Assembly: GCA_965225855.1 (NCBI GenBank)
Contig: CBDDCK010000005.1
Location: 928,001-992,000, forward strand
From: Spirochaetia bacterium
Lineage (GTDB): Bacteria > Spirochaetota > Spirochaetia > SP-2023
Direction of reading: 5' to 3'
Length of the DNA stretch: 64,000 nt
The stretch's first letter is position 1; every line of letters starts with the position of its first letter. Positions 1 to 50,454 of the stretch are shown piece by piece. Below the pieces are notes generated by a model. That model was not told where the DNA came from and did not search any database. It saw only the letters and a program-made list of their open reading frames with translations. The position numbers and the translations under genes were made by a program.

Positions 1-772
1 ATAGTTTGAAATATTTTCGTAAGTGTTTCTTCGGTGTTTCGCTGGCAATGCAGTGCAATAGCGCCAGTAAAGTGGTTTTGCCTGTGCTGTTCTTGCCCAA
101 AAATAAATTGATTTGGCCAAATTCCATCGCCAATTGTGGCAGGGCATATAGCCGGTCTAGCTCCAAACTCTGTATTTTTATCGGTTTAAAATCCTGCGGT
201 TTTACCAGCTTAGATTGGTATTCATGGCTTTTGTCCAGCATGGGGTAGTGATCGGATAGTTGATTTACTTTTCGGCTATCGGCCAAGGCTTGTTCGTACT
301 TTCCTTGTTTGGCATAGCATTCACTGCGATATAAATAGTAGAAAACCATAGCGTTTGGGTTTCTCTCTATCAATTGGTCGTACTCGGCAAGTGCGAGATT
401 CCACTGTTCTGTTCTTTCGTATAACAAGGCTCTATCAACATAGATCGACATATAGTCTGGGTTTAATTCAATTACTTTGTTGTAATTCTCTAAGGCTTTA
501 TCCCATTGTTCTTGCATTTGATATACATTACCTCGTTGATGATAAGCAGGTAAATAGTTTGGCTCTATCGCCAGGGCTTGGTTTAAATCTTGCAAAGATT
601 GCTCTAATTCCCCTAGGTATCTATAACTTATTGCTCTGCTGTTGTAGATTTCAGCATTGTGTGGTTCTAGTTCAATCGCCACGGTGTAGGCTGCAATAGC
701 CTCCGCGTCATTGCCTGCTTTTTGTCGCTTTTGCCCTCGATTGAAATGCTTTTTTGCTTCTTTATTTTTCAT
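1..772 (-). CDS. TPR + ABC/AAA ATPase fusion protein, runs off window start (paralogue of 8076..10190)
   Basis: Not in ORF track. Manual translation from ATG at 772: MKNKEAKKHFNRGQ..., ~5 TPRs, then KIQSLELDRLYALPQLAMEFGQINLFLGKNSTGKTT (Walker A), closely matching the 704-aa paralogue; GGAG upstream. Confidence 0.85.
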   Translation of the reverse strand, partial: MKNKEAKKHFNRGQKRQKAGNDAEAIAAYTVAIELEPHNAEIYNSRAISYRYLGELEQSLQDLNQALAIEPNYLPAYHQRGNVYQMQEQWDKALENYNKVIELNPDYMSIYVDRALLYERTEQWNLALAEYDQLIERNPNAMVFYYLYRSECYAKQGKYEQALADSRKVNQLSDHYPMLDKSHEYQSKLVKPQDFKPIKIQSLELDRLYALPQLAMEFGQINLFLGKNSTGKTTLLALLHCIASETPKKHLRKYFKL

Positions 773-794
773 GATGTGGCTCCTGTGTTTACGA

Positions 795-2315
795 TTGATA
801 AACCGTTTATCAATGGTTTACGGACTCATTTTAACCGATTGGGATTCTAAAGGGTATAGACCCTTTAGCGGGGTTTCGGGCAGAGCCCCGGATATAATAG
901 TAAAGAGTAGGCTTGTCAATCGGTGGTAGTTGTATCATTTATCAATGGTTTACGGACTCATTTTAACCGATAGGGATTCTAAAGGGTTTAGACCCTTTAG
1001 CGGGGTTTGGGGCAGAGCCCCGAATATAGTAATAAAGAATAGGTTTGTCAATAGGTGGTAGTTGTATCATTTATCAATGGTTTACGGACTCATTCTAACC
1101 GATAGGGATTCTAAAGGGTTTAGACCCTTTAGCGGGGTTTGGGGCAGAGCCCCGAATATAATAGTAAAGAGCTGGTTTGTCAATAGGTGGTAGTTGTATC
1201 ATTTATCAATGGTTTACGGACTCATTTTAACCGATAGGGATTCTAAAGGGTTTAGACCCTTTAGCGGGGTTTGGGGCAGAGCCCCGAATATAGTAATAAA
1301 GAATAGGTTTGTCAATAGGTGGTAGTTGTATCATTTATCAATGGTTTACGGACTCATTCTAACCGATAGGGATTCTAAAGGGTTTAGACCCTTTAGCGGG
1401 GTTTGGGGCAGAGCCCCGAATATAGTAATAAAGAGTTAGCTTGTCAATCGCTGGTAGTTTTCCATATTGTCAACGATAGGGATTCTAAAGGGTCAAGACC
1501 CTTTAGCGGGGTTTGGGGCAGAGCCCCGAATATAAAAATAAATAGTTTACTTGTCAATAGGTGGTAGTTGTATCATTTATCAATGGTTTACGGACTCATT
1601 CTAACCGATAGGGATTCTAAAGGGTTTAGACCCTTTAGCGGGGTTTGGGGCAGAGCCCCGAATATAGTAATAAAGAGTTAGCTTGTCAATCGCTGGTAGT
1701 TTTCCATATTGTCAACGATAGGGATTCTAAAGGGTCAAGACCCTTTAGCGGGGTTTGGGGCAGAGCCCCGAATATAGTAATAAAGAGCTGGTTTGTCAAT
1801 CGCTGGTAGTTTTCCATATTGTCAACGATAGGGATTCTAAAGGGTTGCGACCCTTTAGCGGGGTTTGGGGCAGAGCCCCGAATATAATAGTAAAGAGCTG
1901 GTTTGTCAATAGGTGGTAGTTGTATCATTTATCAATGGTTTACGGACTCATTTTAACCGATAGGGATTCTAAAGGGTTGCGACCCTTTAGCGGGGTTTGG
2001 GGCAGAGTCCCGGATATAGTAATAAAGAGCTGGTTTGTCAATCGGTGGTAGTTGTATCATTTATCAATGGTTTACGGACTCATTCTAACCGATAGGGATT
2101 CTAAAGGGTTGCGACCCTTTAGCGGGGTTTGGGGCAGAGCCCCGGATATAGTAATAAAGAGCTGGTTTGTCAATCGGTGGTAGTTGTATCATTTATCAAT
2201 GGTTTACGGACTCATTTTAACCGATAGGGATTCTAAAGGGTTGCGACCCTTTAGCGGGGTTTGGGGCAGAGTCCCAAATATTACAATAAAGAGTAGGCTT
2301 GTCAATCGGTGGTAG
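795..2315 (-). repeat. Tandem array of 12 double-hairpin/promoter units (132-bp and 110-bp periods)
   Basis: Core gggattctaaagggtNNNNaccctttagcggggtttggggcagagcccc at 841, 973, 1105, 1237, 1369, 1479, 1611, 1721, 1831, 1963, 2095, 2227. Confidence 0.95.
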
Positions 2316-2787
2316 TACCGGTAATATTCAGTACTTCAGCTAAGCACTTTAGCAAATTCGATACTTCGGTAAGCCACAGAGTTAAGTTCCTTTGCCCTAT
2401 GCTGGTATTGCCACCGTGTGCAAGTTGATTGCGGTTTTTAATTAAAGCAGCTATGGCATCTTTGGTTTCTTGGGTTATTCTTTGCTTAAATGCTTGTTGT
2501 AATGGCTCTGTTATATCTCCTAACAATTGTGAGAGTACGTCAAACTTAAATGAGCTTTGGCGGCGCAAAATGCGCTTTTGCACTAACTGATTCAGTGATT
2601 CTCCCGAATTTTGTGCCACATACTGCAACAGGTATTGCTTGACAGACTGTTCATAGTGCGCACTGATACGAATGCAAAGATACTGGTTAAAGTCCCCTTG
2701 CAAGTCGACATCTTCTATAGCAGTAGACTTTTCTAGCTTTTGTTGTAAGCGATTATTGTTGGTGCTTATGTTGTAATCTGCTACCAT
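2302..2787 (-). CDS. HEPN-domain protein (RiboL-PSP/MAE_28990-like putative RNase)
   Basis: R-x4-H motif RNQLAH; N-terminal helix 'ISAHYEQSVK'; directly downstream of a DUF262 gene. Confidence 0.75.
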   Translation of the reverse strand: MVADYNISTNNNRLQQKLEKSTAIEDVDLQGDFNQYLCIRISAHYEQSVKQYLLQYVAQNSGESLNQLVQKRILRRQSSFKFDVLSQLLGDITEPLQQAFKQRITQETKDAIAALIKNRNQLAHGGNTSIGQRNLTLWLTEVSNLLKCLAEVLNITGTTTD

Positions 2788-2790
2788 AAT

Positions 2791-3906
2791 CTACAGTTTG
2801 GCAAAGGTTTGTTGTGCTAAGTCAAAGCGTTTATCTACATGGTTTTCGTCCGCTGTAGGGCCTTTACAGTATTCTTTGTATGTATTGTTCTGCAACAATT
2901 CATCGTATAATGTTTTGACTCTCTGTGGTTTAAGCTCTGTATTACTAGACAATTTGTGGGCCAACGCTACCATTACCGAATCAAAACAAGCTGCATTAAA
3001 GATTTTAAAAGGCCGAAAGGCTTTGTTTGGTTCACCGTTAAAAGCATCATAGACCAGCTTTATTGTGCGGCCAAATAACTGAAAGTCGATATTGCTACCG
3101 TCTTTATGTGCACTCATAAACTCGTTCATAAACTTTTTATATGGTGCTTTATAGTTTGCTCTGTTGTAGTAGTAGGCATAAAAACGCAGTATATATTCCT
3201 CATCTTTTTTGCGGTTATCTTCCTTGCCGTAGATGGCCCGCCAGTGCTGATTCTGGTTGAGTTGCTCGAGTTGATTGTTAAACTCACCCATATACATACA
3301 GGCCCTAAGCTCTTGGGGCGCCAATACCCGCCCGCTGGAATTGAGCCTTTCAAACACTAAGTAAATGCCACTCTGGCTGCGATCGGGTTTTTCTTGCTTT
3401 ACAACCGTAATATGTAGCATGGCATTGTCTAGCTTTCTTTGGTAGACATCCGCTAAGTCTTGGTATGTTTTACCATGAAGTGGGTTGCTTTTACCCAGTT
3501 GCAAGGCAAAACTTGTCGCTGGTTTTGTACCTGTAGGGAACTGATTGGCAAAGAATCCTTCAATGGTTTTTAGCCGTTGTTGGCCGTCAATTACCATAAA
3601 CTTTTCATCATTTGTTTTGGCTAAAAAGATGGTAGGGATAGGCAAATCCATCAATAGCGATTCTATAAATCGGGAAGCTTCGGCTTTATTCCAGACGTAG
3701 TTGCGTTGGTAGTTCGGTATAATAAACTCTTGCTTTTGTAGTTTTCTAACCAGAATCTCTACAGTAAAGTCCACCCCATACGTACTAATCTCATAATTAT
3801 ATCGTATATCTTCATTTTCTCCGCTTTCTTGTTCGGCTTGCAATTCCTGCTGTTCTGGTGTTAATCGATCACGAAAGTTATTGTCAATATCGCTTTCTTG
3901 GGACAT
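2791..3906 (-). CDS. DUF262 (GmrSD/ParB-like) protein
   Basis: IPNYQRNYVW, FIESLL..LPIP, VIDGQQRL, VFERLNSSG motifs. Confidence 0.9.
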   Translation of the reverse strand: MSQESDIDNNFRDRLTPEQQELQAEQESGENEDIRYNYEISTYGVDFTVEILVRKLQKQEFIIPNYQRNYVWNKAEASRFIESLLMDLPIPTIFLAKTNDEKFMVIDGQQRLKTIEGFFANQFPTGTKPATSFALQLGKSNPLHGKTYQDLADVYQRKLDNAMLHITVVKQEKPDRSQSGIYLVFERLNSSGRVLAPQELRACMYMGEFNNQLEQLNQNQHWRAIYGKEDNRKKDEEYILRFYAYYYNRANYKAPYKKFMNEFMSAHKDGSNIDFQLFGRTIKLVYDAFNGEPNKAFRPFKIFNAACFDSVMVALAHKLSSNTELKPQRVKTLYDELLQNNTYKEYCKGPTADENHVDKRFDLAQQTFAKL

Positions 3907-4069
3907 CGTATCCTCCTTTTATAAAGGGCAGAATAAACAAATAACTATTTGGGGTCAAACGAATGTAGAGTATAAATTCTATTTTTTGAGGTAGGGAAGT
4001 CTATTAAAAATAAACACTGAATCGGCCTAAATTAAATCCATTATCACCGATTTCTATCTTAGCTATCTA

Positions 4070-4541
4070 TAACATTATTTGGGGCTCTGCCCCAAACCCC
4101 GCGCAAGGGTCTATACCCTTGAGGATCCCAATCGTTGATTGTTTAAGTTACTCTTTGGCAACCTGTCTTTAATCATCACTTATTTTTACCCCAACTATCT
4201 ACTATATCATTCGGGGCTCTGCCCGAAACCCCGCGCAAGGGGTTATACCCTTTAGAATCCCAATAGTGCATAGTTTAAGTTACTCTTTGGCAATCTGTCT
4301 TTAATTATCACTTATTTTTACACCACTTATCTATAACATCATTCGGGGCTCTGCCCGAAACCCCGCGCAAGGGTCTATACCTTTTAGAATCCCAATCGGT
4401 TATAGTTTAAGTTACTCTTTGGCAATCTGTCTTTAATTATCACTTATTTTTACACCACTTATCTATAACATCATTCGGGGCTCTGCCCGAAACCCCGCGC
4501 AAGGGTATCTACCCTTTAGAATCCCAATCGTGTATAGTTTG
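4070..4541 (+). repeat. Array of 4 double-hairpin units, opposite orientation, 132-bp period
   Basis: ggggctctgccc(c/g)aaaccccgcgcaaggg...ccctt...atccc at 4081, 4213, 4345, 4477. Confidence 0.95.
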
Positions 4542-4623
4542 ACTGTTTGTTGGTGATAATCTATTGGTTGGTCTACTAGCAATAGATGGTCGATCATATA
4601 TTTTGTTAGCCTACAGAGTCAAG

Positions 4624-5202
4624 CTAGCTTGTTCCATTGTATGATAATTGCCCTTGTAAATGCTGGTTTACGGCCTCTATCAATGCCATTGAATGCTGAT
4701 ACATCTGCGAAATATCTTCCACGGTTAGCTGGCCTAGGTTTTGTTCTACGTAATTTTTATGGACAAGCTCATTGCGCTTATACCCCAATCTTATGAAAGA
4801 CTTGGCATAGCTCTCACTATAGCGATCGATACTTGTTAGTGATTCCATTTCTATATCTATGCTTTTTAGAAACCTATTAAAGCCACGTTGGTGTGGTTCT
4901 TTAAACTCAAACAGTTTATAAAACCCCCGATCGAAAACTTTAGTTTCTACTAGCTTAGTTAGGGAAGTAGTCTTGCTTGCATTTTGTAACCACTGTTTGA
5001 GCATTTCAATAAAGCAATGTTCGACATAACTAAAAGCAGAAATCACTAACGACTTACGCAGCTCTAGGTTTAGTTGGTTGGCATCGTCAAACTTCTCTTC
5101 AGCAGATAGAAATTCTTGTATTCTATGGCATAACTCTATCGATTGCTCTATTGAGCCCTTTGTTTGCATTGTTGTTTGTTGCATAAACTTATACTTTTGC
5201 AA
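4624..5202 (-). CDS. HEPN-domain protein
   Basis: RKSLVISAFSYVEH and RNELVH (R-x4-H); overlaps the upstream DUF262 stop. Confidence 0.75.
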   Translation of the reverse strand: MQKYKFMQQTTMQTKGSIEQSIELCHRIQEFLSAEEKFDDANQLNLELRKSLVISAFSYVEHCFIEMLKQWLQNASKTTSLTKLVETKVFDRGFYKLFEFKEPHQRGFNRFLKSIDIEMESLTSIDRYSESYAKSFIRLGYKRNELVHKNYVEQNLGQLTVEDISQMYQHSMALIEAVNQHLQGQLSYNGTS

Positions 5203-6361
5203 GAATATCTTTGGCAGTTTGTATGCGTTGTTCTACCAGTCCTTTGTTGGTAGTCGGTAGGTTGGTTTGTTGCAATCGCTGTTGAATAGTTTTCTTCAGC
5301 TGGTCAAACTGGGCTACTGTAATCGAGACTTGCACTTGCCCCTTGCAAGAAAGCTGGGCCCAAGCGGTAAACAATGCATCGAGTATCGTAACTAAAAATC
5401 TACCGTCATTACTTTTCAAGTTATAACTTTCTATGGGCTGGGTAAAGCTATTCAGAAAGTTAGCAAACATTTGTCTACACTCTGCAAGTTGTTCTTCGGT
5501 GAAGTCTTTTGTTGTTAGCGAAAAGGTATTGAGGAAACGTGCCATAGGTGGCTTGTATTCTTCGGCGTCAGCCAGAGCAAAACAACGCAACAAATACTCT
5601 ATATCTTTATAGTTGTTGTCGGGACTGTTTTGGCCTAACAACTTTTGCCATTGCGGTTTACGGTTTAGTTCATCGAGTAGTTGGTAAAACGGACCATCGA
5701 AAATCGATCGTCGTACTTCCTGGGGTGTTAGCTTAGTTCCACCAGTGTTTAAGCGCTTAAAGATTTCATACATCGAAGAAGCCTGATGTTCAGGTTTCGG
5801 ATCAAATTGAGTGATAGTGATAGTCCGCAGTGTTCGCATGTCGAATATCCATTGTTGTTTGATGCTTAGTTCGCTATACTTTATGCCATGCAAATCGTTC
5901 TTTTGTTCTACATTCGTTACTTTAGGGAGCTGCAAGCGGAAGTCTTCAAAGTATGTATTGTCATCAAATAGTTTGGGATCAATAAACTTGTAGCCTGCTT
6001 GTAGGGACTTTGACCGGATGGTGCCGTACTGATCTTTTCTGGGAAAGCGTTGTTTATAGAAAAAGTATATCGAAGATAGGCGCTGTTGGCCATCTATTAA
6101 CAATTGCTGTTTATTGTGTTCAAAGAGGAACAGCTGCGGTATCGGCAGCCCCATGATTAGCGATTCGATTAAAGAAGACGCTTGTTTTTTGTTCCACGTA
6201 AAGTTGCGTTGAAACGGTGGAATGGTGAATGAGCCTCGATCAATAAACTTTACTAAAGATTCAATATTCCAATCATTGGGTAGCGATCTTATATCATAAA
6301 CGGTTAATCCCGTTGCGTCATCCTCCTCTTCCTCTAATGGTTGTGCTTGATTTTCAGCCAT
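5189..6361 (-). CDS. DUF262 (GmrSD/ParB-like) protein
   Basis: IPPFQRNFTW, LIESLIMGLPIP, IDGQQRL, IFKRLNTGG. Confidence 0.9.
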   Translation of the reverse strand: MAENQAQPLEEEEDDATGLTVYDIRSLPNDWNIESLVKFIDRGSFTIPPFQRNFTWNKKQASSLIESLIMGLPIPQLFLFEHNKQQLLIDGQQRLSSIYFFYKQRFPRKDQYGTIRSKSLQAGYKFIDPKLFDDNTYFEDFRLQLPKVTNVEQKNDLHGIKYSELSIKQQWIFDMRTLRTITITQFDPKPEHQASSMYEIFKRLNTGGTKLTPQEVRRSIFDGPFYQLLDELNRKPQWQKLLGQNSPDNNYKDIEYLLRCFALADAEEYKPPMARFLNTFSLTTKDFTEEQLAECRQMFANFLNSFTQPIESYNLKSNDGRFLVTILDALFTAWAQLSCKGQVQVSITVAQFDQLKKTIQQRLQQTNLPTTNKGLVEQRIQTAKDILAKV

Positions 6362-6539
6362 AATGTCAACCTCCTCAATTGGTTTTTACCCGCTAGATTA
6401 TAGAAAAACACCGCCAGTTGTGCCATAACATGCTCTAAATTTTGTTGCATTTGCTTTCTGATACCCTACAGAAAGGCTGCCTATATATTTGAGTGATGGT
6501 AGATATTTGCACGATTGCCACTCCAACTATCCGCTATAG

Positions 6540-7420
6540 TATCTGGGGCGCTGCCCCAAACCCCGCGCAAGGGGTCTATACCCTTTAGAATCCCAATCGT
6601 GTATAGTTTAAGTTACTCTTTAGCAATCTGTCTTTGGCTTTCATTGATTTTTACCTTGACTACCTACAACATTATTCGGGGCGCTGCCCCAAACCCCGCG
6701 CAAGGGTCTATACCCTTGAGGATCCCAATTTGTTATAGTTTATCCGTAGACCATAAATAAATGATGAAACTATCAATGATGGACAAACCAATTATTTATT
6801 ATATTATTCGGGGCTCTGCCCCAAACCCCGCGCAAGGGTCTATACCCTTGAGGATCCCAATTTGTTATAGTTTATCCGTAGACCATAAATAAATGATGAA
6901 ACTATCAATGATGGACAAACCAATTATTTATTATATTATTCGGGGCGCTGCCCCAAACCCCGCGCAAGGGTCTATACCCTTGAGGATCCCAATTTGTTAT
7001 AGTTTATCCGTAGACCATAAATAAATGATGAAACTATCAATGATGGACAAACCAATTATTTATTATATTATTCGGGGCTCTGCCCCAAACCCCGCGCAAG
7101 GGTCTATACCCTTGAGGATCCCAATTTGTTATAGTTTATCCGTAGACCATAAATAAATGATGAAACTATCAATGATGGACAAACCAATTATTTATTATAT
7201 TATTCGGGGCTCTGCCCCAAACCCCGCGCAAGGGTCTATACCCTTGCGAATCCCAATTTGTTATAGTTTGTCTTATTGTTTGTTGCTCTGTCTTTGGCTT
7301 TCATTGATTTTTACCCCCACTACCTACTATATCAATCGGGGCTCTGCCCCAAACCCCGCGCAAGGGTCTATACCCTTACGAATCCCAATCGTGTATAGTT
7401 TGCTTGTCAATCGGTGGTAA
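6540..7420 (+). repeat. Array of 7 double-hairpin units, 132/133-bp period, two spacer types
   Basis: Cores at 6545, 6678, 6810, 6942, 7074, 7206, 7338. Confidence 0.95.
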
Positions 7421-7495
7421 TCTGACCAATACCCTACAATTTTCGATCGGTTGATCGATTAAATTGAGCCTTTTTTCCCACTATTTAGGAAATGC

Positions 7496-8083
7496 TTATC
7501 CATTTTCCAGGCTCAAGAATACATTGAGTTTTTCTTTGGCTAATTGCTGGTCGATTAGCTTAAATTCAAAAGGCAATCTGTCATTCATTATGGTTGTATA
7601 CTTGTTTATTTCCGTTTCAATATTCTTTTTCCAGTCATCAAACTGTTGTTGACCCTGTAGATCGTCTTTTACATAGTAAATGAAATACAAGCATACTCGT
7701 TGGGGTTGGTTGTGGATAAAGTTGTTATCAATGGTAAAATTCCATTGATGAGAAAAGGCCAATAGCAAGGTATCTAAAGCTTTCTTGATGATTTCTTGTA
7801 GCTGTTCTTGCTTATATTGCTTGATAATATGGCGTTTGATGTCTTTAATAGAATTGCCTTCTCCGATAATTCCTTGCCATTCCGTAATATCTCTTTGGTA
7901 TGCTTTGGGCTGGTATTCGGAAACTTCGACAAAATAAAACCACTGTTGTTTGCTATAGAAAAAGTCCATATCCTTTAATTTCCAATTGCTTCCCAGTTTG
8001 TCTTCCACTTTAAAGCAGTTGGTTTCATTTAGGTTTTCATCTTCAAACCTTACGGTTAATCGGCTTTCTGTAAACTCAATCAT
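7496..8083 (-). CDS. Hypothetical protein coupled to the ATPase; possible degenerate PD-(D/E)xK nuclease fold
   Basis: 8-bp overlap with ATPase stop; 'DMDFF...FYFVEVS' resembles a D...ExK motif with K>S. Confidence 0.6.
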   Translation of the reverse strand: MIEFTESRLTVRFEDENLNETNCFKVEDKLGSNWKLKDMDFFYSKQQWFYFVEVSEYQPKAYQRDITEWQGIIGEGNSIKDIKRHIIKQYKQEQLQEIIKKALDTLLLAFSHQWNFTIDNNFIHNQPQRVCLYFIYYVKDDLQGQQQFDDWKKNIETEINKYTTIMNDRLPFEFKLIDQQLAKEKLNVFLSLENG

Positions 8084-10190
8084 GCCACATTACCTCGTCA
8101 TAATGGTCATGCATCTCTAATGCTTCGGCCAATATCTCGTTATCTGGCACGCCGTCTTTAAGGTCATTGCAGATGTAACCTTGCTTAGTTAAGGCAAAAC
8201 AAAAGGCGCTTTGTTGGTTGCGTTTGCTGGCAATTACCAGTTCTTCTAGTACAAAAGAGCTGTGACTGGCGATGAATATTTGCACGCCTTTCGCCGCTAG
8301 TGCAGCCAAGATTTGCACAAACTGGCGCACGAAAGCGGGGTGAAGGTTGGCTTCGGCCTCGTCTATCAACAACACACTTTCACGAGTGATGCTGTGGTTT
8401 TCTAGCAATAAGCGCAGCAATTGCAGCTTTTTTATCCCTTCCGCTCCCTGCTCTAAGGGTATTGTTTCACCGCTAGCCAGTTTGTAACTAAATTCATTGC
8501 GGGGGCTAGATTTGCGATTGCGCTCTACCGATTCGCTGCCTTTGTAGTGTTGTTCAAAGCATTCCAGCAGGTTCTGTTGGCGATTGCTGAGCTGCTTATC
8601 TGGGCTATTGCGGAGCAACTTCTGGCAAGTTTGGCTATCAATAGCACTATATTCATGGGGTAGGGTGATTATGGCACGGTACAAACTCAATAGGCATTTG
8701 TCTGGGATAAACACAGGTTCAAATAAGGTTGTGCCTCTATGCGATTGGTTTGTGGTGCTGTTCCATTGCCATTGTTGCTGATAGCTTTGCAAAAATGCTT
8801 GGATATTGGCCTGCTCTATCACCGATAGTGCAAAGTGTTGTTGTAAATTTTGTTTGGGGTTGTCGCTGGCAATGCAGTGCAATACCTTCAATAAAGTGGT
8901 TTTGCCTGCACCATTTTTACCCAAAAATAAATTGAGTTGGCCAAACTCCATCGCCAATTGGGGTAGGGCATATAAGCGATTTAGCTCCAGCTTCTGTATT
9001 TTTCTTGGTTGGAAATCTTGTTGCTTTACTAGCTTTTCTTGGTATTCTCGTGCTTGTTGATCTATAAAAGGAAATCCCGGCATCAATTGGTTTACCTTGC
9101 GGTTATCGGCTAAAGCCAGTTCGTACTTCCCTTGTTGTGCATATAGCATGCTGCGGTTCATGTAGGCTACTGCATTGGTTTTGTCTAATTCAATCGCTTG
9201 GTTGAAGTCTAACAGAGCCTGATCTTCTTGCCCTTGTTCTGCGTATAGTGCCCCACGATTGCCATAGGCATCTGCATAGTCTCGGTTTAATTCAATCGCT
9301 TTATGGTAATCTTCCAGAGCCTGCTCCCATTGCCCTCTTTCTGTATATAATAGGCCTCGGTTATAGTAAGCTGCAACATTGCCCAACTCAATCGCTTTGT
9401 TGTAGTCTAACAGAGCCTTATCTGTTTGCCCTTGTTCTGCGTATAATACCCCACGATTGCCATAGGCATCTGCATAATCTGGCTGTAACTCAATTGCTTG
9501 GTCGTAGTCTTTCAAAGCCTTATCCGTTTGCCCTTGCTTTTTATATAATACACCTCGGTTGTTGTAAGCTGTAACATTGCCCAACTCAATCGCTTGGTTG
9601 TAGTCTTCCAGTGCCTTATCTTCTTGCCCTTGTTTTTGGTATAGGTTTCCACGATTGCCATAGGCATCTGCATAGTCTCGGTTTAATTCAATCGCTTTAT
9701 GGTAATCTTTTAGAGCCTCATGCCATTGCCCATGTTTTCGATATAAGTTGCCTCGGTTGTTGTAAGATTCAACATTACCCAACTCAATCGCTTGGTTGTA
9801 GTCTAACAGAGCCTTATCTTCTTGCCTTTGTTCTGCGTATAGTACTCCACGATTGCCATAGGCTGCTGCATTGTCTGGCTGTAATTCAATCGCTTGGTCG
9901 TAATCTTTTAGTGCTTGATCCAGTAGTCCTTGTTCCCGATATAGATTGCCTCGGTTATAATAAGCTGTAGCATTGTTTGGTCTTATCGCAATGATTTCGT
10001 CATAATCTCCCAAGGATTTTTCCCATAAACCTAGGTTTTTGTATAAGTTTCCTCGGTTGCTGTAGGCTTCAATACATTTATTGTCTAGCTCAATAGCCTT
10101 GGTGTAGGCTTCAATGGCCGCCTCTATGTTCCCTGTTTTTTGGTAGTTTTCTCCCTGTTCAAAGTAGGCTTTTGCTTCTGGGTTTGGCAT
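8076..10190 (-). CDS. 11-TPR array fused to ABC-type (AAA_15/AAA_21-like) ATPase
   Basis: AYxNRG repeats; Walker A GKNGAGKT, AEG signature, Walker B LLIDEAE, NLHP, H-loop IASHS. Confidence 0.9.
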   Translation of the reverse strand: MPNPEAKAYFEQGENYQKTGNIEAAIEAYTKAIELDNKCIEAYSNRGNLYKNLGLWEKSLGDYDEIIAIRPNNATAYYNRGNLYREQGLLDQALKDYDQAIELQPDNAAAYGNRGVLYAEQRQEDKALLDYNQAIELGNVESYNNRGNLYRKHGQWHEALKDYHKAIELNRDYADAYGNRGNLYQKQGQEDKALEDYNQAIELGNVTAYNNRGVLYKKQGQTDKALKDYDQAIELQPDYADAYGNRGVLYAEQGQTDKALLDYNKAIELGNVAAYYNRGLLYTERGQWEQALEDYHKAIELNRDYADAYGNRGALYAEQGQEDQALLDFNQAIELDKTNAVAYMNRSMLYAQQGKYELALADNRKVNQLMPGFPFIDQQAREYQEKLVKQQDFQPRKIQKLELNRLYALPQLAMEFGQLNLFLGKNGAGKTTLLKVLHCIASDNPKQNLQQHFALSVIEQANIQAFLQSYQQQWQWNSTTNQSHRGTTLFEPVFIPDKCLLSLYRAIITLPHEYSAIDSQTCQKLLRNSPDKQLSNRQQNLLECFEQHYKGSESVERNRKSSPRNEFSYKLASGETIPLEQGAEGIKKLQLLRLLLENHSITRESVLLIDEAEANLHPAFVRQFVQILAALAAKGVQIFIASHSSFVLEELVIASKRNQQSAFCFALTKQGYICNDLKDGVPDNEILAEALEMHDHYDEVMWHD

Positions 10191-10214
10191 GGTGTGTCTC
10201 CTGTCTTTACTATA

Positions 10215-10345
10215 GATAAACCGTTTATCAACGGTTTACGGAATCATTCTAACCGATTGGGATTCTAAAGGGTCGAGACCCTTTAGCGGGGTTTGGGGCA
10301 GAGCCCCGAATATTATCATAAATAGTTTACTTGTCAATCATTGAT
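10215..10345 (-). repeat. Single double-hairpin unit directly upstream of the TPR-ATPase gene
   Basis: Same core near 10259-10308 with TTGACA on the minus strand. Confidence 0.9.
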
Positions 10346-10413
10346 ATTTCCATCATTTATTTATGGTTTTTAGTTTTTCAATAGTGTATAGTATCTAGTA
10401 GAATAGCTAATAG

Positions 10414-13272
10414 TTATTCGGTTTTAACCTTATTGTCGCTGGGTTTGTCGGTTGTTTGGGCCTGGTGTTTGTGTTTATAATGCTCTGCCAATTCTGCATG
10501 CACCCAGTCTTTTACCTTTAATCTTAGCTTGGTTCTGTGTTCATATTGCGGCAATTCATACAAGCTCAAATGCAATTTCTGCACAAATTCCGTTTGCTCT
10601 GTCTGCTTGTAATGGTCCACCATTACGGGAATATGCTGGGCTATCAATGCTTTGTGCTGGTAGAATTGCCGTTTTCTTTTAGCCGTAAGGTAGCGGCTTG
10701 TATGTAAAACCATCCAGTAGATAAACAAGGTATAAAACGGGGTGAGGGCCAACAATATATAAAGGCCTTGCCATATAACTATGACTAATATCCCAATAGT
10801 TACCGCAGTAATAGTCAAAATCCCCTTATGTTCAAGTTTAAAGAAATTGAATACCGCTTCAATCTTTGCCAGTGCTTCCTTCTCTTCTCTTTGAAACTCT
10901 TCCTTTTTATCGCTAAAACCTTGATGTAGTTCTTCTTTAAGAACCTTTGCTAGTTGCTGTTTCTGTTGCTCTATCTTGCCTAAACTATTTATATTATCCA
11001 CAGCTTTAAGGTATAAGTCTTTGGCTTGTTCAATATTTTTCTCTAGCTTTTCTTTGGCAAAGTCTTGGGCTTTTTGCCAAATTTTTCTGGCAGAATCTCT
11101 CCGGTTATCGGCTAATTCTTGCTCTGCCCATTGGCTATATAAGATGCTAAGATTAGTCCAAGCTAGAACATCATCTGGCTGTAATTCAATCGCTTGGTCG
11201 TAGTCTTTCAGAGCTTTATCCAGTTGCCCTTGCTTTTCATATAATCGGCCTCGGTTATAGTAGGCTGTAACATTGCCCAACTCAATCGCTTTGTTGTAGT
11301 CTTCGAGTGCTTTATCTGGTTGCCCTTGTTCTTCGTATAGGTTTCCACGATTGCCATAGGCTTCTGCAAAGTCTGGGTTTAATTCAATCGCTTGGTCGTA
11401 GTCTTTCAGAGCTTTATCCAGTTGCCCTTGCTTTTCATATAATCGGCCTCGGTTATAGTAGGCTGTAACATTGCCCAACTCAATCGCTTTGTTGTAGTCT
11501 TCGAGTGCTTTATCTGGTTGCCCTTGTTCTTCGTATAGGTTTCCACGATTGCCATAGGCATCTGCATCATCTGGCTGTAACTCAATCGCTTTGTTGTAAT
11601 CTTTTAGTGCCTTATCCAGTTGCCCTTGCTTTTTATATAGATTGCCTCGGTTGTTGTAAGCTGTAACACTGCCCAGCTCAATCGCTTGGTTGTAGTCTAA
11701 CAGAGCCTTATCTTCTTGCCCTTGTTCTGCGTATAGTACTCCACGATTGCCATAGGCATCTGCATCATCTGGCTGTAATTCAATGGCTTGGTCGTAATCT
11801 TTTAGAGCCTCATGCCATTGTTTTTGCTTTTGATATAGATTGCCTCGGTTGTTGTAAACGTCAACATCGCCCAACTCAATCGCTTGGTTGTAGTCTTCCA
11901 GTGCCTTATCTGGTTGCCCTTGTTCTGCGTATAATACCCCACGATTGCCATAGGCTGCTGCAAAGTCTGGCTGTAATTCAATGGCTTTATCGTAGTCTTT
12001 TAGTGCTTGATCCAGTAGCCCTTGTTCTGCATATAATAGGCCTCGGTTATAGTAGGCTGTAACATTGCCCAGCTCAATCGCTTGGTTGTAGTCTAACAGA
12101 GCCTTATCTTGTTGCCCTTGTTCTGCGTATAATACCCCACGATTGCCATAGGCATCTGCAAAGTCTGGCTGTAATTCAATCGCTTGGTCGTAATCTTTTA
12201 GAGCCTCATGCCATTGTTTTTGTTTTTGATATAATCGGCCTCGGTTATAGTAGGCTGCAACACCGCCCAACTCAATCGCTTGGTTGTAGTCTAAAAGTCC
12301 CTTATCTTCTTGCCCTTGTTCTGCGTATAATACCCCACGACTCACATAGGCATCTACAAAGTCTGGCTTTAATTCAATTGCTTTGTTGTAATCTTCCAGG
12401 ACTTTATCCGTTTGCCCTTGCTTTTGATATAGATTGCCTCGGTTATAGTAGGCTTCAATATAGCCCAACTCAATTGCTTGGTTGTGGTCTAATAGAGCCT
12501 GATCCCATTGCCCTTTTTTTACGTATAGCACTCCACGATTCGTATAGGCTTCTGCAAAGTCTCGGTTTAACTCAATCGCTTTGTTGTAATCTTCCAGGGC
12601 TTTATCCGTTTGCCCTTGCTTTTGATATAGATTGCCTCGGTTATAGTAAGCTTCAACATTGCCCAACTCAATCGCTTGGTTGTAGTCTAACAGAGCCTGA
12701 TCTTCTTGCCCTTGTTCTGCGTATAGGTTTCCACGATTCGCATAGGCTTCTGTAAAGTTTGGCCTTAATTCAATCGCTTTATGGTAATCTTCCAGAGCTT
12801 TATCTGGTTGCCCTTGCTTTTCATATAATACACCTCGGTTGTTGTAAGCTGCAACATTGCCCAACTCAATCGCTTGGTTGAAGTCTAAAAGTGCCTTATC
12901 TGTTTGCCCTTGTTCTGCGTATAATACCCCACGATTGCCATAGGCATCTGCATAGTCTGGCTGTAATTCAATCGCTTGGTCGTAATCTTTTAGTGCTTGA
13001 TCCGATAGCCCTTGTTTTTGATATAGATTGCCTCGGTTGTAATAAGTTATAGCATTGGTTGGCTCTATCGCAATGGCTTTGTTGTAATCAACCATGGCTT
13101 CGGCCCATTTTCCTATTTCTCTATATAAGATTGCTCGGTTGTTATAGGCTTTAATACATTTATTGTCTAGCTCAATAGCTAGGGCATAGGCCTCAATGGC
13201 CGCCTTTATATTTCTTACTTCTTGGTGGTTTTCCCCCTGTTCAAAGTAGGCTTTTGCTTCTGGGTTTATCAT
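10414..13272 (-). CDS. ~22-TPR array protein with C-terminal coiled coil and two TM helices
   Basis: Alternating 34/31-aa TPRs; hydrophobic segments GILTITAVTIGILVIVIW and LYILLALTPFYTLFIYWMVL. Confidence 0.85.
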   Translation of the reverse strand: MINPEAKAYFEQGENHQEVRNIKAAIEAYALAIELDNKCIKAYNNRAILYREIGKWAEAMVDYNKAIAIEPTNAITYYNRGNLYQKQGLSDQALKDYDQAIELQPDYADAYGNRGVLYAEQGQTDKALLDFNQAIELGNVAAYNNRGVLYEKQGQPDKALEDYHKAIELRPNFTEAYANRGNLYAEQGQEDQALLDYNQAIELGNVEAYYNRGNLYQKQGQTDKALEDYNKAIELNRDFAEAYTNRGVLYVKKGQWDQALLDHNQAIELGYIEAYYNRGNLYQKQGQTDKVLEDYNKAIELKPDFVDAYVSRGVLYAEQGQEDKGLLDYNQAIELGGVAAYYNRGRLYQKQKQWHEALKDYDQAIELQPDFADAYGNRGVLYAEQGQQDKALLDYNQAIELGNVTAYYNRGLLYAEQGLLDQALKDYDKAIELQPDFAAAYGNRGVLYAEQGQPDKALEDYNQAIELGDVDVYNNRGNLYQKQKQWHEALKDYDQAIELQPDDADAYGNRGVLYAEQGQEDKALLDYNQAIELGSVTAYNNRGNLYKKQGQLDKALKDYNKAIELQPDDADAYGNRGNLYEEQGQPDKALEDYNKAIELGNVTAYYNRGRLYEKQGQLDKALKDYDQAIELNPDFAEAYGNRGNLYEEQGQPDKALEDYNKAIELGNVTAYYNRGRLYEKQGQLDKALKDYDQAIELQPDDVLAWTNLSILYSQWAEQELADNRRDSARKIWQKAQDFAKEKLEKNIEQAKDLYLKAVDNINSLGKIEQQKQQLAKVLKEELHQGFSDKKEEFQREEKEALAKIEAVFNFFKLEHKGILTITAVTIGILVIVIWQGLYILLALTPFYTLFIYWMVLHTSRYLTAKRKRQFYQHKALIAQHIPVMVDHYKQTEQTEFVQKLHLSLYELPQYEHRTKLRLKVKDWVHAELAEHYKHKHQAQTTDKPSDNKVKTE

Positions 13273-13295
13273 GATGTGTCTCCTGTTGTTATGAT

Positions 13296-13870
13296 AGATA
13301 AACCGTTTATCAACGGTTTACGGACTAATTTTAACCGATTGGGATTCTAAAGGGTATAGACCCTTTAGCGGGGTTTGGGGCAGAGCCCCAGATATTATAA
13401 TAAAGAGTTGTTTTGTCAATCATTGATAGATAAACCGTTTATCAACGGTTTACGGACTAACTCTAACCGATTGGGATTCTAAAGGGTCGAGACCCTTTAG
13501 CGGGGTTTGGGGCAGAGCCCCAGATATTATAATAAAGAGTTGTTTTGTCAATCATTGATAGATAAACCGTTTATCAACGGTTTACGGACTAACTCTAACC
13601 GATTGGGATTCTAAAGGGTCGAGACCCTTTAGCGGGGTTTGGGGCAGAGCCCCAGATATTATAATAAATAGTTAGCTTGTCCATCATTGATAGTTTTATC
13701 ATTTATTTATGGTTTTTAGTTTTTCAATAGTGCATAGTTTCTTTTATTGTTTAGGAATTTAACCCTTATTATCCATTATTCCCACCCAACCTATCTGCTA
13801 TATCAATTGGGGCTCTGCCCCAAACCCCGCACAAGGGTATATACCCTTGAGGATCCCAATAGTGCATAGT
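13296..13870. repeat. Three minus-oriented units (132-bp period) plus one plus-oriented unit
   Basis: Cores at 13341, 13473, 13605; inverted core at ~13809-13860. Confidence 0.9.
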
Positions 13871-13872
13871 TA

Positions 13873-16800
13873 TTATTTTTCTTGATGATTCTTTGCTTCC
13901 TTTTCCAGCATTTCCAGTAGCTCTACCGTCTGTAGGCTGACCGTGATTACACGACAAACCAAGTCGATAATGGCTTCTTTGTGCTCGGCAAAGCTAAAGG
14001 CAGGGACTAACTCTGCAATGGTCGGGTCTTTAATCTTTAGGGCTTGACGGTAGCGTTCCAGTGGCCAATCTATCGCACTTCGGTTGCCTAGGCGGTAACT
14101 CCAAGCGATAGTCGGAATGTTTGTTAGCGTGGTTTGGTTGTCGATTCGTATCGTTCCATTGGCAGAATCGCTTTTTAGTTTGGGCAACAATACCAATTCT
14201 GGTTCTGCTTGCTGTGGTTCTTCGCTTGGGCTATCACTGAATAAAGGCCCGTCAATCGCTTTTTTCTTTTGGGGCTTTTTACTATTTGCTTCTTCTCTTT
14301 GGCAAGTAAACGGTTCTACTGTGGCAAAGTTTATATGCAATTCTGCCAATTGTTGGCCGATACTCTGGTAATGAGCAAAGTCTTCTTTAGTAGACCCCAA
14401 CAACGGCATTCGTGGAAAGCTGCGCTTCAAATCTACGGCATACTTCTCGCGATAGCTCGATAAATGCAACACAGCATAGCAATAGTGCCAGATACTTTCG
14501 GCCATAATGGCCTCGTCTTTGTAGTGTTCTCTAAACTTCTTTAAACCATACTCGGTAACATTGCTGCGCTTTTCGCCTTCTTTTGTCCAGTAATATAGTG
14601 GTATACATTGGCTGTCTCCAGTTGCATGTAAATCGACAATCGTATCGCTTGCCAGTGTTTGAAAGTCTTTAGCTGTACCGGGTGCAGCTAAACAAAGGTA
14701 GATATTTGGTTGTTCTTTGCGCCATATCTGCGGCCATTGATAGGTCATCGAATTAAAATTCTTGTCGTAGTACAGGTGCATTGTAGTAAAGGGGCGGTAC
14801 AAACACAACACAATCTGTTCTTGGTTATAGCTTTTGGTTATGCCTCTTTTCAGGTATTTGTTTAGCTCTCTATCCCATTTAATGCTTTGTTTATCGCTGG
14901 TTTTGCCCTCTAAAGTCTGTTGATATACCTTGCTAAAGTACTGCATCTTGGTTTGTAAATCGTCTATATCAAAATCATAAACCCATTCATCTCGCTGGCT
15001 CTTTAACCCATTAGAAAAGGTTTTGAATAAAGGAGTTTCTCCTTTTGCCGTTGCTTTGCCTTCTTTGACTTGCTTATTAATAATAGGAATCAAGCTATGC
15101 CAATCGTTATCGGTTTGCTGTAGCCAATGGTTTTGTTTACTGGGCACAATCTGCCTAAAGTCTATTTTATCTATGGGATTGCCTTGCAACCAAGCTAACT
15201 TTTGCCCTTTCGTCCATTCATCTTCTACGCTTGTGTAGTGTAAAGTAGTGCTTTGTAGCTCTGAATCTCGCACGAAAAACAGAATACTTACGCCTACCAT
15301 AATATCAAATACATTGCCTACTGCCGTTCCCTTTCCACCAGAGGTGCGCACATTACCGCCCAGATCGACAATATAAATCCGTTGAAAGTCCTGCATAACA
15401 CAGCTACGCAAACCGTCCAAAGCCATTGCATCAATAAAACTTCTGTTGCATACAAAGGCCACAATTCCGTTATTTTTAAGGCGATCACTGGCATAACGCA
15501 CAAAGCGAATGTACATATCATAAAGCTGGTTTTTGTTTTGTGCGCTTCCTTGCTTGGCGTAAGTTTGTTTAATTCTTTGGTCAATAAAAGGGTACTTTCG
15601 GTTAGAGTTTTGGTCATTGTAGCTTATTTGTTTGGCATTATACGGCGGGTTACCGATGATCAAACTAATATTCTTGTTGTTTTGTTCGGCGATTCTCTCG
15701 GCATTTGTGCTAGAAAGTCCAAACAACTCTAAGCGATTGTTGGGGGCATTCGTGCCTAGGGCTTCGGTATTGTCTAGGGTATCGGCAAAGCATAAACCGC
15801 TAAATTCTTTATATTCTTTCATCTTTTGTTGGTATGTGTATTCTATATTCAAGGCGGCAATGTAGTAAGGAAGTATCGCCACTTCATTGGCATGTAGCTC
15901 GTGTTCATACTTATATTGTAGGCTTTCCTTTGGCAGTTTCTCTATCAGTTCGCAAATGAATGTGCCCGTACCTGTGGCAGGGTCTAGGATTTCCACGCCT
16001 GGACTGCCCAAGGTTTTGCCAAAGTGTTCGGCCAACAAATGGTTAGAACTGTCTATCATAAAGTCGACAATCTCGGTGGGAGTGTACACAACTCCCAGCC
16101 GATCTGCCATCTTCGGGTTATACGCCTTGTAGAAACTCTCATAAACTGCCTTCAAGAATTTCTGCTTCTCATGGTGATCTTCAATCTGTTTAGCGTGCGC
16201 ACTCAAGGTAGAATAGTAGTGTTCTATGTTGCTAAGTAGGCGCATGCGTTCGGCTCTACTTAGGAAAGTCGCCACCAATGTTTCCAATTGTTGGCCTATG
16301 TTGTTACTGCGGTGGAATCTTGTATCGCTGAAAATACTACTGAATAGCTCTTCTGTAAGTACGTGTTGTACCAACATCTCATCTATATCATGCGTGGTAA
16401 TTTCTTTGTTTATCGTCTGTTTACAAGTTTCATAAAAGCGATTGTGTTCCTCTCTAAAGCCGATATTTTCCTTGTGTTGTTGCTGTACTAGCTCCACAAA
16501 GTGCGCAGCTATCTGGGGAATATCGGCGGTAAACTGTTCTAAAGCCGCTTGAAATTCCTTTACCTCTGGTGGAGTGTAGGCGGTAAACTGCAGCAATAAC
16601 TGGTGCAGTTTGTGCTTATCGCTAAACGAAACTCGGCCATATTCTTGGCTATTCTGGTACAGAATCGCCTGCATACTGTCTTCAAATAGAATGTTGTTTC
16701 TGGGGTATCCTTTGGCAAACTTTACTTGAATCTCTTTGTCTATGTCGTCTTTCGAGTCCTTACTTTCCCAAAAGCCAAAGTCTAAACGCAAGGCATTCTT

Positions 16801-16998
16801 TAGCGTTCCGTCCGGCCTTGGGCTCTTGTTTCGTGCTTTGTGGGGCAGTTCCCGCACTAAAAACAGGTTTTGTTTGTCCGCATAATGGTTGATCAAACGC
16901 TCAAAGCAACTCTTGATCTGCTCTTCATTGCGGCTGCCTCCGTACTGTATCACCTTGTCGCGTTCACTTAAATAGGTTTCAATCTGCGCTATACTCAT
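13873..16998 (-). CDS. Single-polypeptide restriction-modification enzyme (type IIG / type ISP-like, no helicase)
   Basis: N-terminal RPDG...FWESK nuclease motif; VYTPTEIV, LDPATGTGTF, IGNPPY N6-MTase motifs; ISP-type C-terminal region (YRPF, FPRMP). Confidence 0.85.
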   Translation of the reverse strand: MSIAQIETYLSERDKVIQYGGSRNEEQIKSCFERLINHYADKQNLFLVRELPHKARNKSPRPDGTLKNALRLDFGFWESKDSKDDIDKEIQVKFAKGYPRNNILFEDSMQAILYQNSQEYGRVSFSDKHKLHQLLLQFTAYTPPEVKEFQAALEQFTADIPQIAAHFVELVQQQHKENIGFREEHNRFYETCKQTINKEITTHDIDEMLVQHVLTEELFSSIFSDTRFHRSNNIGQQLETLVATFLSRAERMRLLSNIEHYYSTLSAHAKQIEDHHEKQKFLKAVYESFYKAYNPKMADRLGVVYTPTEIVDFMIDSSNHLLAEHFGKTLGSPGVEILDPATGTGTFICELIEKLPKESLQYKYEHELHANEVAILPYYIAALNIEYTYQQKMKEYKEFSGLCFADTLDNTEALGTNAPNNRLELFGLSSTNAERIAEQNNKNISLIIGNPPYNAKQISYNDQNSNRKYPFIDQRIKQTYAKQGSAQNKNQLYDMYIRFVRYASDRLKNNGIVAFVCNRSFIDAMALDGLRSCVMQDFQRIYIVDLGGNVRTSGGKGTAVGNVFDIMVGVSILFFVRDSELQSTTLHYTSVEDEWTKGQKLAWLQGNPIDKIDFRQIVPSKQNHWLQQTDNDWHSLIPIINKQVKEGKATAKGETPLFKTFSNGLKSQRDEWVYDFDIDDLQTKMQYFSKVYQQTLEGKTSDKQSIKWDRELNKYLKRGITKSYNQEQIVLCLYRPFTTMHLYYDKNFNSMTYQWPQIWRKEQPNIYLCLAAPGTAKDFQTLASDTIVDLHATGDSQCIPLYYWTKEGEKRSNVTEYGLKKFREHYKDEAIMAESIWHYCYAVLHLSSYREKYAVDLKRSFPRMPLLGSTKEDFAHYQSIGQQLAELHINFATVEPFTCQREEANSKKPQKKKAIDGPLFSDSPSEEPQQAEPELVLLPKLKSDSANGTIRIDNQTTLTNIPTIAWSYRLGNRSAIDWPLERYRQALKIKDPTIAELVPAFSFAEHKEAIIDLVCRVITVSLQTVELLEMLEKEAKNHQEK

Positions 16999-32187: not shown

Positions 32188-32468
32188 CCAACCAAAGGCT
32201 GGAACAGACAAGCCACAAACACCCAGGCTTATACAAATTTTTACCCCAGTAGTCTCAAATAATTTATTGGCTACTAAGCAACGTATTTGCCTACAACACT
32301 AAGATACAAAAAAAGTGCCCAAACATAGAAAAAGCACAAAAAAACTTACAAAAAGCTTACAAAAAGCTTATATGGGCCTTGACGCAACACCCCCCCTAGC
32401 AAAATAGGGATTTACAGACTAGCCCGTATGGGTTGGCTAATCTTTATCCATTTTTGGAGGTATTGCTT

Positions 32469-50265: not shown

Positions 50266-50454
50266 AAGCAATACCTCCAACAAGGGATAAAGATTGGCCA
50301 ACCCATACGGGCTAGTCTGTAAATCCCCATTTTGCTAGGGGGGGTGTTGCGTCAAGGCCTATACAAGCTTTTTGTAAGTTTTTTTATGTTTGGGCACTTT
50401 TTTTGTGTGTTAGTGTTGTAAGGTGGTTCAAAATCCATGCCAATCAAAAGGCTT

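Follow-up and report, generated by a model that had tools for sequence, protein, structure and literature searches.

At positions 7496 to 10190 of the window, a 64,000-nucleotide stretch of a Spirochaetia contig (CBDDCK010000005.1), lie two genes on the reverse strand whose reading frames share 8 bp. The first, P0001 (8076..10190), encodes a protein of 704 amino acids that begins directly with a TPR and carries an array of 11 TPRs at residues 7-365 (9096..10172, reverse strand), with inner repeats that alternate between 34 and 32 amino acids and form a 198-nt unit. The repeats were delimited with Pfam TPR_1 (11 stretches, E 1.9e-96) and likewise with a purpose-built TPR profile, and the figure of 11 depends on the assembly, as the whole array is spanned by none of the listed contigs. 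Residues 393-704 (8076..9014, reverse strand) form an ABC ATPase domain of the HEC-02A type, matched by AAA_21 (E 1.5e-18) and AAA_15 (E 2.7e-16). The second gene, P0002 (7496..8083), encodes a 195-aa HEC-02B/NERD-like partner, for which a restriction-endonuclease-like fold is predicted. The initial annotation had described a TPR array fused N-terminally to the ATPase and overlapping a 195-aa gene, and this layout was confirmed, as was the degenerate D..ExK-like motif in the partner, which reads D40...E53-V-S55, with Ser55 (7919-7921) in the place of the ExK lysine. The further description of the ATPase as complete holds for the Walker A motif (residues 424-431; 8898-8921), the signature GAEGIKK (582; 8427-8447), the Walker B/D-loop (607-618; 8337-8372) and the H-switch (640-644; 8259-8273), but not for the substitutions E499C and D520Q, nor for Insert 1, which is short; the P-x-K-E motif reads PDKC (within 8694-8711).

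The window belongs to a 2.71-Mb genome (G000; contig C5), which was compared with three other genomes of the same genus (G001-G003). G002 encodes proteins labelled Ca. Haliotispira prima, and the host of the window is a genus-mate of this organism. The junction between the TPRs and the ATPase is bridged by a single contig from run X2, which may represent the source sample (8074-9280, no differing letters), and by another from run X4 of a different study (8262-9143, ~91% identity, depth 2.9), which argues that the fusion is not a repeat mis-assembly; together with the paralogues and G002, these junction contigs rule out that explanation. The 5-TPR paralogue placed at 1..772 by the initial annotation proved to be real: the gene encodes 506 amino acids on the reverse strand and extends beyond the window (C5:927252-928772; its 5' part is at 1..772), and the proposed search for a partner located one at C5:926720-927259, outside the window, with a cysteine in place of the ExK lysine. 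A third paralogue of 494 amino acids and 5 TPRs (C5:924890-926374, reverse strand, also outside the window) lacks a partner, has a truncated end and shows degenerate Walker A, signature, D-loop and H-switch motifs.

The gene content shows that the neighborhood is a defense island. Two GmrSD_N (DUF262) plus RiboL-PSP-HEPN gene pairs, which resemble PD-T4-2, occupy 2302..6361 with hairpin repeats between them, and a type IIG restriction-modification fusion is located at 13873..16998, all on the reverse strand. Double-hairpin repeats with a length of 132 or 110 bp fill all gaps between the cassettes of the island. Tandem units are found upstream of the 5-TPR paralogue (773..2301, reverse strand; eight with TTGACA-17-TATATT) and at 6362..7495 (no strand assigned), where their orientation is opposite to that of the arrays that precede the TPR genes, and a single unit is present in the region upstream of P0001 (10191..10413, reverse strand), along with a promoter-like sequence (TTGACA-16/17-TAATAT) and a ribosome-binding stretch. 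The two latter elements are nearly identical to those of the two other TPR genes in the window, and the repeat units before the three TPR genes carry TTGACA-16/17-TATATT or TAATAT directed at the gene. All 30 blastn matches of the repeat in the 2.71-Mb genome are confined to 13 kb of the island, and searches for it yielded no Rfam family, no viral contig and no match in G001-G003. Restriction and HEPN systems neighbor the pair in both G000 and G002, which speaks against a non-defense role, for example in the binding of host or housekeeping proteins in a host-associated spirochaete, as does a protein that begins directly with a TPR. TPR arrays are general binders and would suit such a role, but nothing points to it specifically, and we consider it highly improbable.

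The ATPase domain of P0001 has HEC-02A as its best PADLOC model (E 4e-49; the next unrelated family, NsnB, at 6e-21), as do all five ATPase domains scanned, and HEC-02B is the sole PADLOC match of the partners (P0002: E 3e-4). Likewise, the relatives collected with an ATPase alignment were HEC-02A-like, and a partner-family ORF was present at 76 of the 80 genome loci collected with it. A profile built from 65 downstream partners (eight of 73 picks were left out as short or wrong-frame) matched exactly two of the 3,895 ORFs of G000, namely P0002 and the partner of the paralogue (E 6e-11 and 8e-9), and the Atlas leads for P0002 were DUF6661/NERD (0.91-0.94). According to the available text of the report on HEC systems, HEC-02 pairs an ABC ATPase with a PD-(D/E)xK protein of the NERD-like kind, and a tested representative lowered plaquing in E. 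coli, with both genes required (10.1101/2024.01.29.577857). In the same text, its discoverers leave open how ABC ATPases of the HEC type sense infection and propose that inserts in the ATPase set the trigger specificity (10.1101/2024.01.29.577857). The PADLOC matches of both genes show descent from HEC-02 and rule out a wholly new system; the candidate new anti-phage system of the initial annotation thus has a known core, and of its architecture the gene pair matches HEC-02, whereas the TPR cap found no match in the searchable literature.

Judged by these matches, the pair is derived from HEC-02 and would work like it, but we do not count it as a member because the lysine of the nuclease signature is missing: the (D/E/Q)xK signature of the HEC-02 nuclease is absent in P0002 (E53-V-S55). 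The P-x-K-E and GFDDTYxD motifs, family-invariant as defined from our alignment and not from the HEC paper, are also not intact in P0001 (E499C, D520Q). The likeness to HEC-02 lies in the order of the genes, with a small gene for a NERD-like PD-(D/E)xK protein downstream of that for the ABC ATPase, in the match of both proteins to its models, and in the location of a 23-TPR copy within a type I restriction locus in G002. The differences are the 2-23 N-terminal TPRs on the ATPase, an Insert 1 that is ~35-40 residues shorter, the erosion of the GFDDTY-type motif and the missing ExK lysine in this partner clade. No HEC-02 structure was among the PDB matches.

Comparisons were also made with other defense systems. 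In PARIS, the AAA_15/21 ABC ATPase AriA is described as sensing a phage protein and releasing the nuclease AriB (PMC11464382). However, AriB is a TOPRIM tRNase, and the accessible part of that account has AriA sensing without a repeat domain (PMC11464382). AriA models score P0001 far lower than HEC-02A does (3e-19 versus 4e-49), and the pair gave no match at E 0.1 to DUF4435 TOPRIM, the AriB partner of PARIS, the partner here belonging to the HEC-02B family. The features of Septu, Gabija and OLD (an HNH partner; a TOPRIM-fused ATPase with a helicase partner) are absent from both proteins. In Avs proteins, TPR-like arrays reportedly bind phage proteins and turn on an NTPase-coupled effector, but the NTPase is of the STAND type and, in Avs7, the TPRs lie at the C-terminus of a protein that includes the effector, as far as the available text goes (PMC13581612). 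P0001, in contrast, combines an ABC NTPase with near-identical tandem TPRs at the N-terminus, and the effector is encoded by a separate gene. No STAND NTPase of the Avs/AVAST kind was recognized in P0001, which has an ABC signature, D-loop and H-switch and matches AAA_15/21 and ABC ATPases.

In terms of domain composition, it is the TPR cap that sets the pair apart from known HEC-02. Six TPR-capped HEC-02-type ATPases were identified, with 2, 5, 5, 8, 11 and 23 repeats. Five come from genomes of the genus Haliotispira, three of them in G000 (11, 5 and 5 TPRs) and two in G002 (8 and 23), and the 2-TPR form (P0005) is from an unplaced contig that is 90% identical to the window. Their ATPase domains form one group in a 119-row FastTree phylogeny (SH 100, stem 1.25), in which the cap is kept by all six across 44-90% ATPase identity. 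The 23-TPR copy in G002 lies between the hsdS and hsdM genes of a type I system. In the same genome, the ATPase-partner pair is followed on its strand by a TPR-DUF2971 gene, and no third gene is common to the G000 and G002 loci.

TPRs were found on none of 147 distant representatives (from the best 150 of 5,962 matches). Nor did the ATPase carry them at any of the 80 best genome loci among 427, from a scan of 21 of 64 parts, or at any of 75 metagenome loci, for which 16 of 64 parts were scanned and five of 80 loci omitted. The same was true of the ATPase frame at 25 loci of other spirochaetes (28 of 400 genomes matched; two positive controls recovered) and of six viral loci, all weak Walker A matches; plasmid records gave eight matches at 24-31% identity. 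Word-index searches, with 8,000 candidates scored, returned the proteins of the clade alone, although one of these searches was weak and missed a known 1107-aa fusion. No close match was seen in G001 (89% complete) or G003 (92% complete). A wider spread of the fusion was not found in any of these searches, all of them partial, and should be read as not found rather than absent. Likewise, the searchable literature held no description of a TPR-capped ABC defense ATPase, and Krishnan et al. (2020), on ABC ATPases, may list such fusions. Thus, the HEC-02 core is known, and what appears from these searches to be new is a TPR-capped ATPase with a variable number of repeats.

The ATPase itself has been remodelled. 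Insert 1, taken as the stretch that separates the Walker A lysine and the P-x-K-E motif, has a length of 57-66 amino acids in all six TPR-ATPases (66 in P0001) versus 95-111 in 74 of 74 full-length genome-locus relatives (six of the 80 were dropped as partial), which amounts to a loss of ~35-40 residues in all six. Furthermore, the GFDDTYxD motif is eroded in the TPR-ATPases. In P0001, E499C affects a position that is acidic in 74 of 74 sequences outside the clade and D520Q one that is kept in 73 of 74; the equivalents of both residues are kept in P0008 and in P0012, the 23-TPR protein of G002. Since the inserts have been proposed to set trigger specificity, the loss of the insert together with the gain of TPRs fits a change of sensor. 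Against this reading, nine of the 122 distant representatives that could be measured, among them the nearest (P0014), have a short Insert 1 but no TPRs; some of these nine may be pattern errors.

A likely donor of repeats is the neighboring gene at 10414..13272 (reverse strand). Its product of 952 amino acids combines 20 TPRs with a hydrophobic tail, and at the DNA level its repeats share 80-85% identity, as well as the 198-nt register, with the repeats of P0001. The P0001 gene resembles a chimera: its bases 6-1004 show 82% identity to this neighbor and its bases 1048-2115 show 75% to the 5-TPR paralogue. In a related strain, represented by the X4 contig (depth 2.9, ~91% identity to the window), 483 bases separate the first repeat from the ATPase versus 879 in the window; the array is 396 bp shorter, which corresponds to exactly two 198-nt units, or four TPRs. 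The array looks recombinogenic. An in-register joint from 9205 to 12684 in one X3 contig, 396 nt shorter, was discounted as a possible assembly path with 43 shared letters.

The concave positions of the repeats were taken as 2, 5, 9, 12 and 13, which are described in the available part of the source as the variable concave face of TPRs (PMC1261162). In the seven inner repeats of P0001, which are not independent, pN was 0.447 at concave, 0.164 at other non-core and 0 at core positions, and the concave value only about equals pS (0.388). Of 33,649 five-position sets, 216 reached the concave pN in P0001 and 298 did so when both genes were included. A like pattern of concave variation is described for the TPRs of fungal NLRs in the accessible text (PMC4986451), and our data suggest that selection on a binding surface is either relaxed or diversifying. 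Together with the differing repeat numbers and the shorter X4 array, these sequence signs lend indirect support to the putative sensing by TPRs proposed in the initial annotation. Position 17, which is not concave, is the second most variable TPR position, and concave-face variability is said to be typical of TPRs generally (PMC1261162); we counted both observations against the sensor evidence, along with the similarity of pN to pS and the non-independence of the repeats.

Both genomes that carry the fusion are rich in TPRs, with at least 150 TPR_1 matches in G000 and at least 97 in G002; there are 22 in G001 and 14 in G003, where these searches did not find the TPR-ATPase system. The other arrays in G000 and G002 precede DUF2971 (PDC-S31), RelA_SpoT (PDC-S33), HEC-07-like and membrane-tail domains. 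This raises the question of whether the TPRs are a lineage-wide scaffold or solubility module that has been spread by repeat recombination, while the ATPase senses as an ordinary HEC-02. The expansion, the variety of domains behind the arrays and the existence of a 2-TPR form are in line with such a module, as are the other N-terminal domains accepted by HEC-02A relatives (DUF4268 in two and TIR in one of 28 long proteins scanned, plus unnamed extensions). However, the domains on the other arrays that can be named are of the defense type (PADLOC PDC-S31, PDC-S33 and HEC-07), the variation is concentrated on the binding face, and the cap has been retained by all six ATPases in spite of their divergence. 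We therefore regard a mere scaffold as unlikely. With TPR arrays on many proteins of the lineage, the fusion could also have been indiscriminate, which we counted against the mechanism proposed below.

The partner P0002 keeps E6, D40, E53 and K101, the latter in a helix, as do all four partners of the clade. The position of the ExK lysine is Ser, Ser, Cys and Ser in these four proteins, and Lys in all aligned outside partners (73/73 and 15/15, or 88/88, without motif filtering). The stem of the clade's partners is long (2.01, SH 100) and the loss of the lysine is older than the split of G000 and G002. K101 is invariant in the family, also in members that retain the ExK lysine, and is therefore, as the alignment has it, ancestral and not a compensating gain. 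In the P0002 model, it is predicted to lie on the helix after the catalytic strand, which is the second core helix; migration of the lysine to this helix has a structural precedent in the PD-EXX-K protein Pa4535, as given in the available text (PMC3424549). The fold prediction reached pLDDT 92.5 with a 64-row alignment and 52 with four sequences. The fold check proposed in the initial annotation gave a divided answer: restriction-endonuclease-like chains lead the list of structural neighbors (Z 5-7), with middling values for the top ones (Upx 7.1, FokI 6.6, Can2 6.5), but Foldseek returned no match at E 0.001. The predicted complex of the ATPase domain with the partner scored 0.02.

The defense context and the ATPase-nuclease logic of the initial annotation are supported, but the loss of the ExK lysine casts doubt on the nuclease activity of P0002. 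One hypothesis is that the partner is a dead nuclease fold that serves as an adaptor, inhibitor or decoy, and that the output comes from the TPR-sensor ATPase or a neighboring effector. The absence of the lysine from all four partners on their long stem, the purifying selection under which the partner gene nonetheless stands and the TPR-DUF2971 gene that follows the pair in G002 are all compatible with this. On the other hand, a pure scaffold need not have retained E6, D40, E53 and K101 in all four proteins, and no third gene is shared by the two loci. We consider a dead partner to be a serious alternative, though not a probable one.

Both genes are under purifying selection, as shown by dN/dS ratios of ~0.26-0.31. 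The values are 0.33/1.29 between the two partners in the genome, which argues that the partner gene is maintained, and 0.23/0.74 between the ATPases of the in-genome paralogues. These ratios are difficult to reconcile with a decaying duplicate that is losing its function and persists by tandem duplication, as are the open frames and the overlap, kept twice in G000 and also in G002, and a loss of the lysine that predates the split of these genomes. Decay could account for E499C, D520Q and S55 in this copy and for the truncated, partnerless and degenerate third paralogue, but we find it quite improbable. The partner of the 23-TPR copy in G002 (P0013) belongs to another HEC-02B subfamily (E 1e-31), on a separate branch, and its ExK motif is intact. 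Judging from these sequences, TPR-capped ATPases would thus work with both kinds of partner, lysine-less and intact. The idea that the ATPase tail chooses the partner subfamily was not supported, as the six tails all score equal or higher against the same subgroup.

With a confidence just short of even, we favor the hypothesis that the TPR sensor binds a phage protein, upon which the ATPase activates or releases the partner, which then cuts nucleic acid. The TPR groove would bind the phage protein much as the TPRs of Avs are described to do (PMC13581612), and the activation or release of the partner could be ATP-dependent, like that of AriB by AriA in the accessible account (PMC11464382). The partner, as a predicted nuclease-fold effector, would halt the infected cell, and would probably cut weakly or with altered specificity by means of the retained acids and K101. 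The array may have taken over sensing from the shortened Insert 1 and the eroded start of Insert 2, and may be re-tuned by recombination in the 198-nt register, both within the gene and with the neighboring 20-TPR gene. We infer every step beyond the sequence facts. The loss of the ExK lysine, the loss of E499 and D520 and the modest fold matches (best Z 7.1) were counted against this mechanism.

More tentatively, Haliotispira may possess an NLR-like repertoire without NLRs, in which recombining TPR cassettes are placed on unrelated effectors and, in the case of HEC-02, have replaced the sensing insert. Near-identical cassettes would expand, contract and recombine, providing each effector with a fast-changing specificity for phage proteins; the effectors would include the HEC-02 ABC ATPase, DUF2971, a RelA/SpoT-type synthetase, a HEC-07-like toxin and membrane tails. 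The fungal NLRs with highly conserved TPRs offer a parallel in their repeat-number polymorphism, sharing of repeats between genes and concave-face variation, although, in the available description, they are eukaryotic STAND proteins (PMC4986451). In P0001, the 198-nt units are ~80-88% identical in DNA, and positive selection is not shown by the sequence data. To date, the fusion has been seen only in one small genus, and at the level of sequence. If such a repertoire exists, P0001 and its relatives would be the first ABC ATPases with a repeat sensor, and if specificity is set by the TPRs, bacterial sensor modules could pass from one NTPase class to another (STAND to ABC) and become diverse through the shuffling of repeats. 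With a sensor of a known type joined naturally to a HEC-type ATPase, the question of the trigger can be tested directly, and the six proteins provide a natural allelic series of 2 to 23 repeats for the triggering of an ABC defense ATPase, with both lysine-less and intact partners.

The gaps between the cassettes of the defence island are all occupied by tandem double-hairpin repeats of 132/110 bp, which form blocks at window positions 773-2301, 3907-4623, 6362-7495, 10191-10413 and 13273-13872. A blastn search of the whole genome (G000) returned 30 matches to this repeat, arranged in five clusters, and no copy in the rest of the genome beyond the inter-cassette gaps. Each of the eight repeat units located before the 5-TPR paralogue contains an 11/12 sigma-70 match directed towards the gene, and one possibility is that this series represents a promoter array of variable copy number or a recombination scaffold. 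In a related strain (run X4 of another study), the joints 10335-13277 and 13549-10197 place other TPR-like gene starts behind the same hairpin unit, which suggests that this strain contains a different set of cassettes.

A third TPR-ATPase paralogue was identified without a partner gene in G000 (contig C5, 924890-926374). Its C-terminus is shortened and the Walker A, signature, D-loop and H-switch motifs are altered, the pattern of a putative decaying copy or decoy. The relatives of HEC-02A (P0020-P0149) have N-terminal extensions of 120-290 aa of different sorts; these are DUF4268, TIR or, in several cases, sequence that matches no Pfam family. In G002, another Haliotispira genome, TPR arrays are joined to RelA_SpoT (PDC-S33, two cases), to a HEC-07-like domain and to DUF2971 (L215:3518-6196, L216:4357-6417, L217:3845-5545 and L017:4237-6627).

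Elsewhere on contig C5 of G000, at 110700-132000 (L209, L210) and 769200-786600 (L211), type III methyltransferase genes alternate with TPR genes in repeated pairs, the latter ending in a C-terminal DUF2971 or a membrane tail. By sequence, these arrays contain at least seven methyltransferase-like copies, two of which were domain-scanned, and no restriction subunit was seen between the pairs. Genes for ThsB-TIR, 8xMP and HEC-06 are embedded in one of the arrays.

The window also contains two copies of metE (18757-21045 and 25926-28079), with a sugar-transport-like block on the plus strand between them. The N-terminal part of the second copy is apparently identical up to about residue 550, followed by unrelated sequence; a duplication or an assembly fault is possible. 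A paralogous pair of lipoprotein-like genes with repeated domains is located at 32433-34757 and 48172-50301. Finally, about 18 kb to the left of the island, an ORF of 1242 aa (G000, C5:902957-906685) may encode a Cas9-like protein, judged by its N-terminal and HNH-like motifs.
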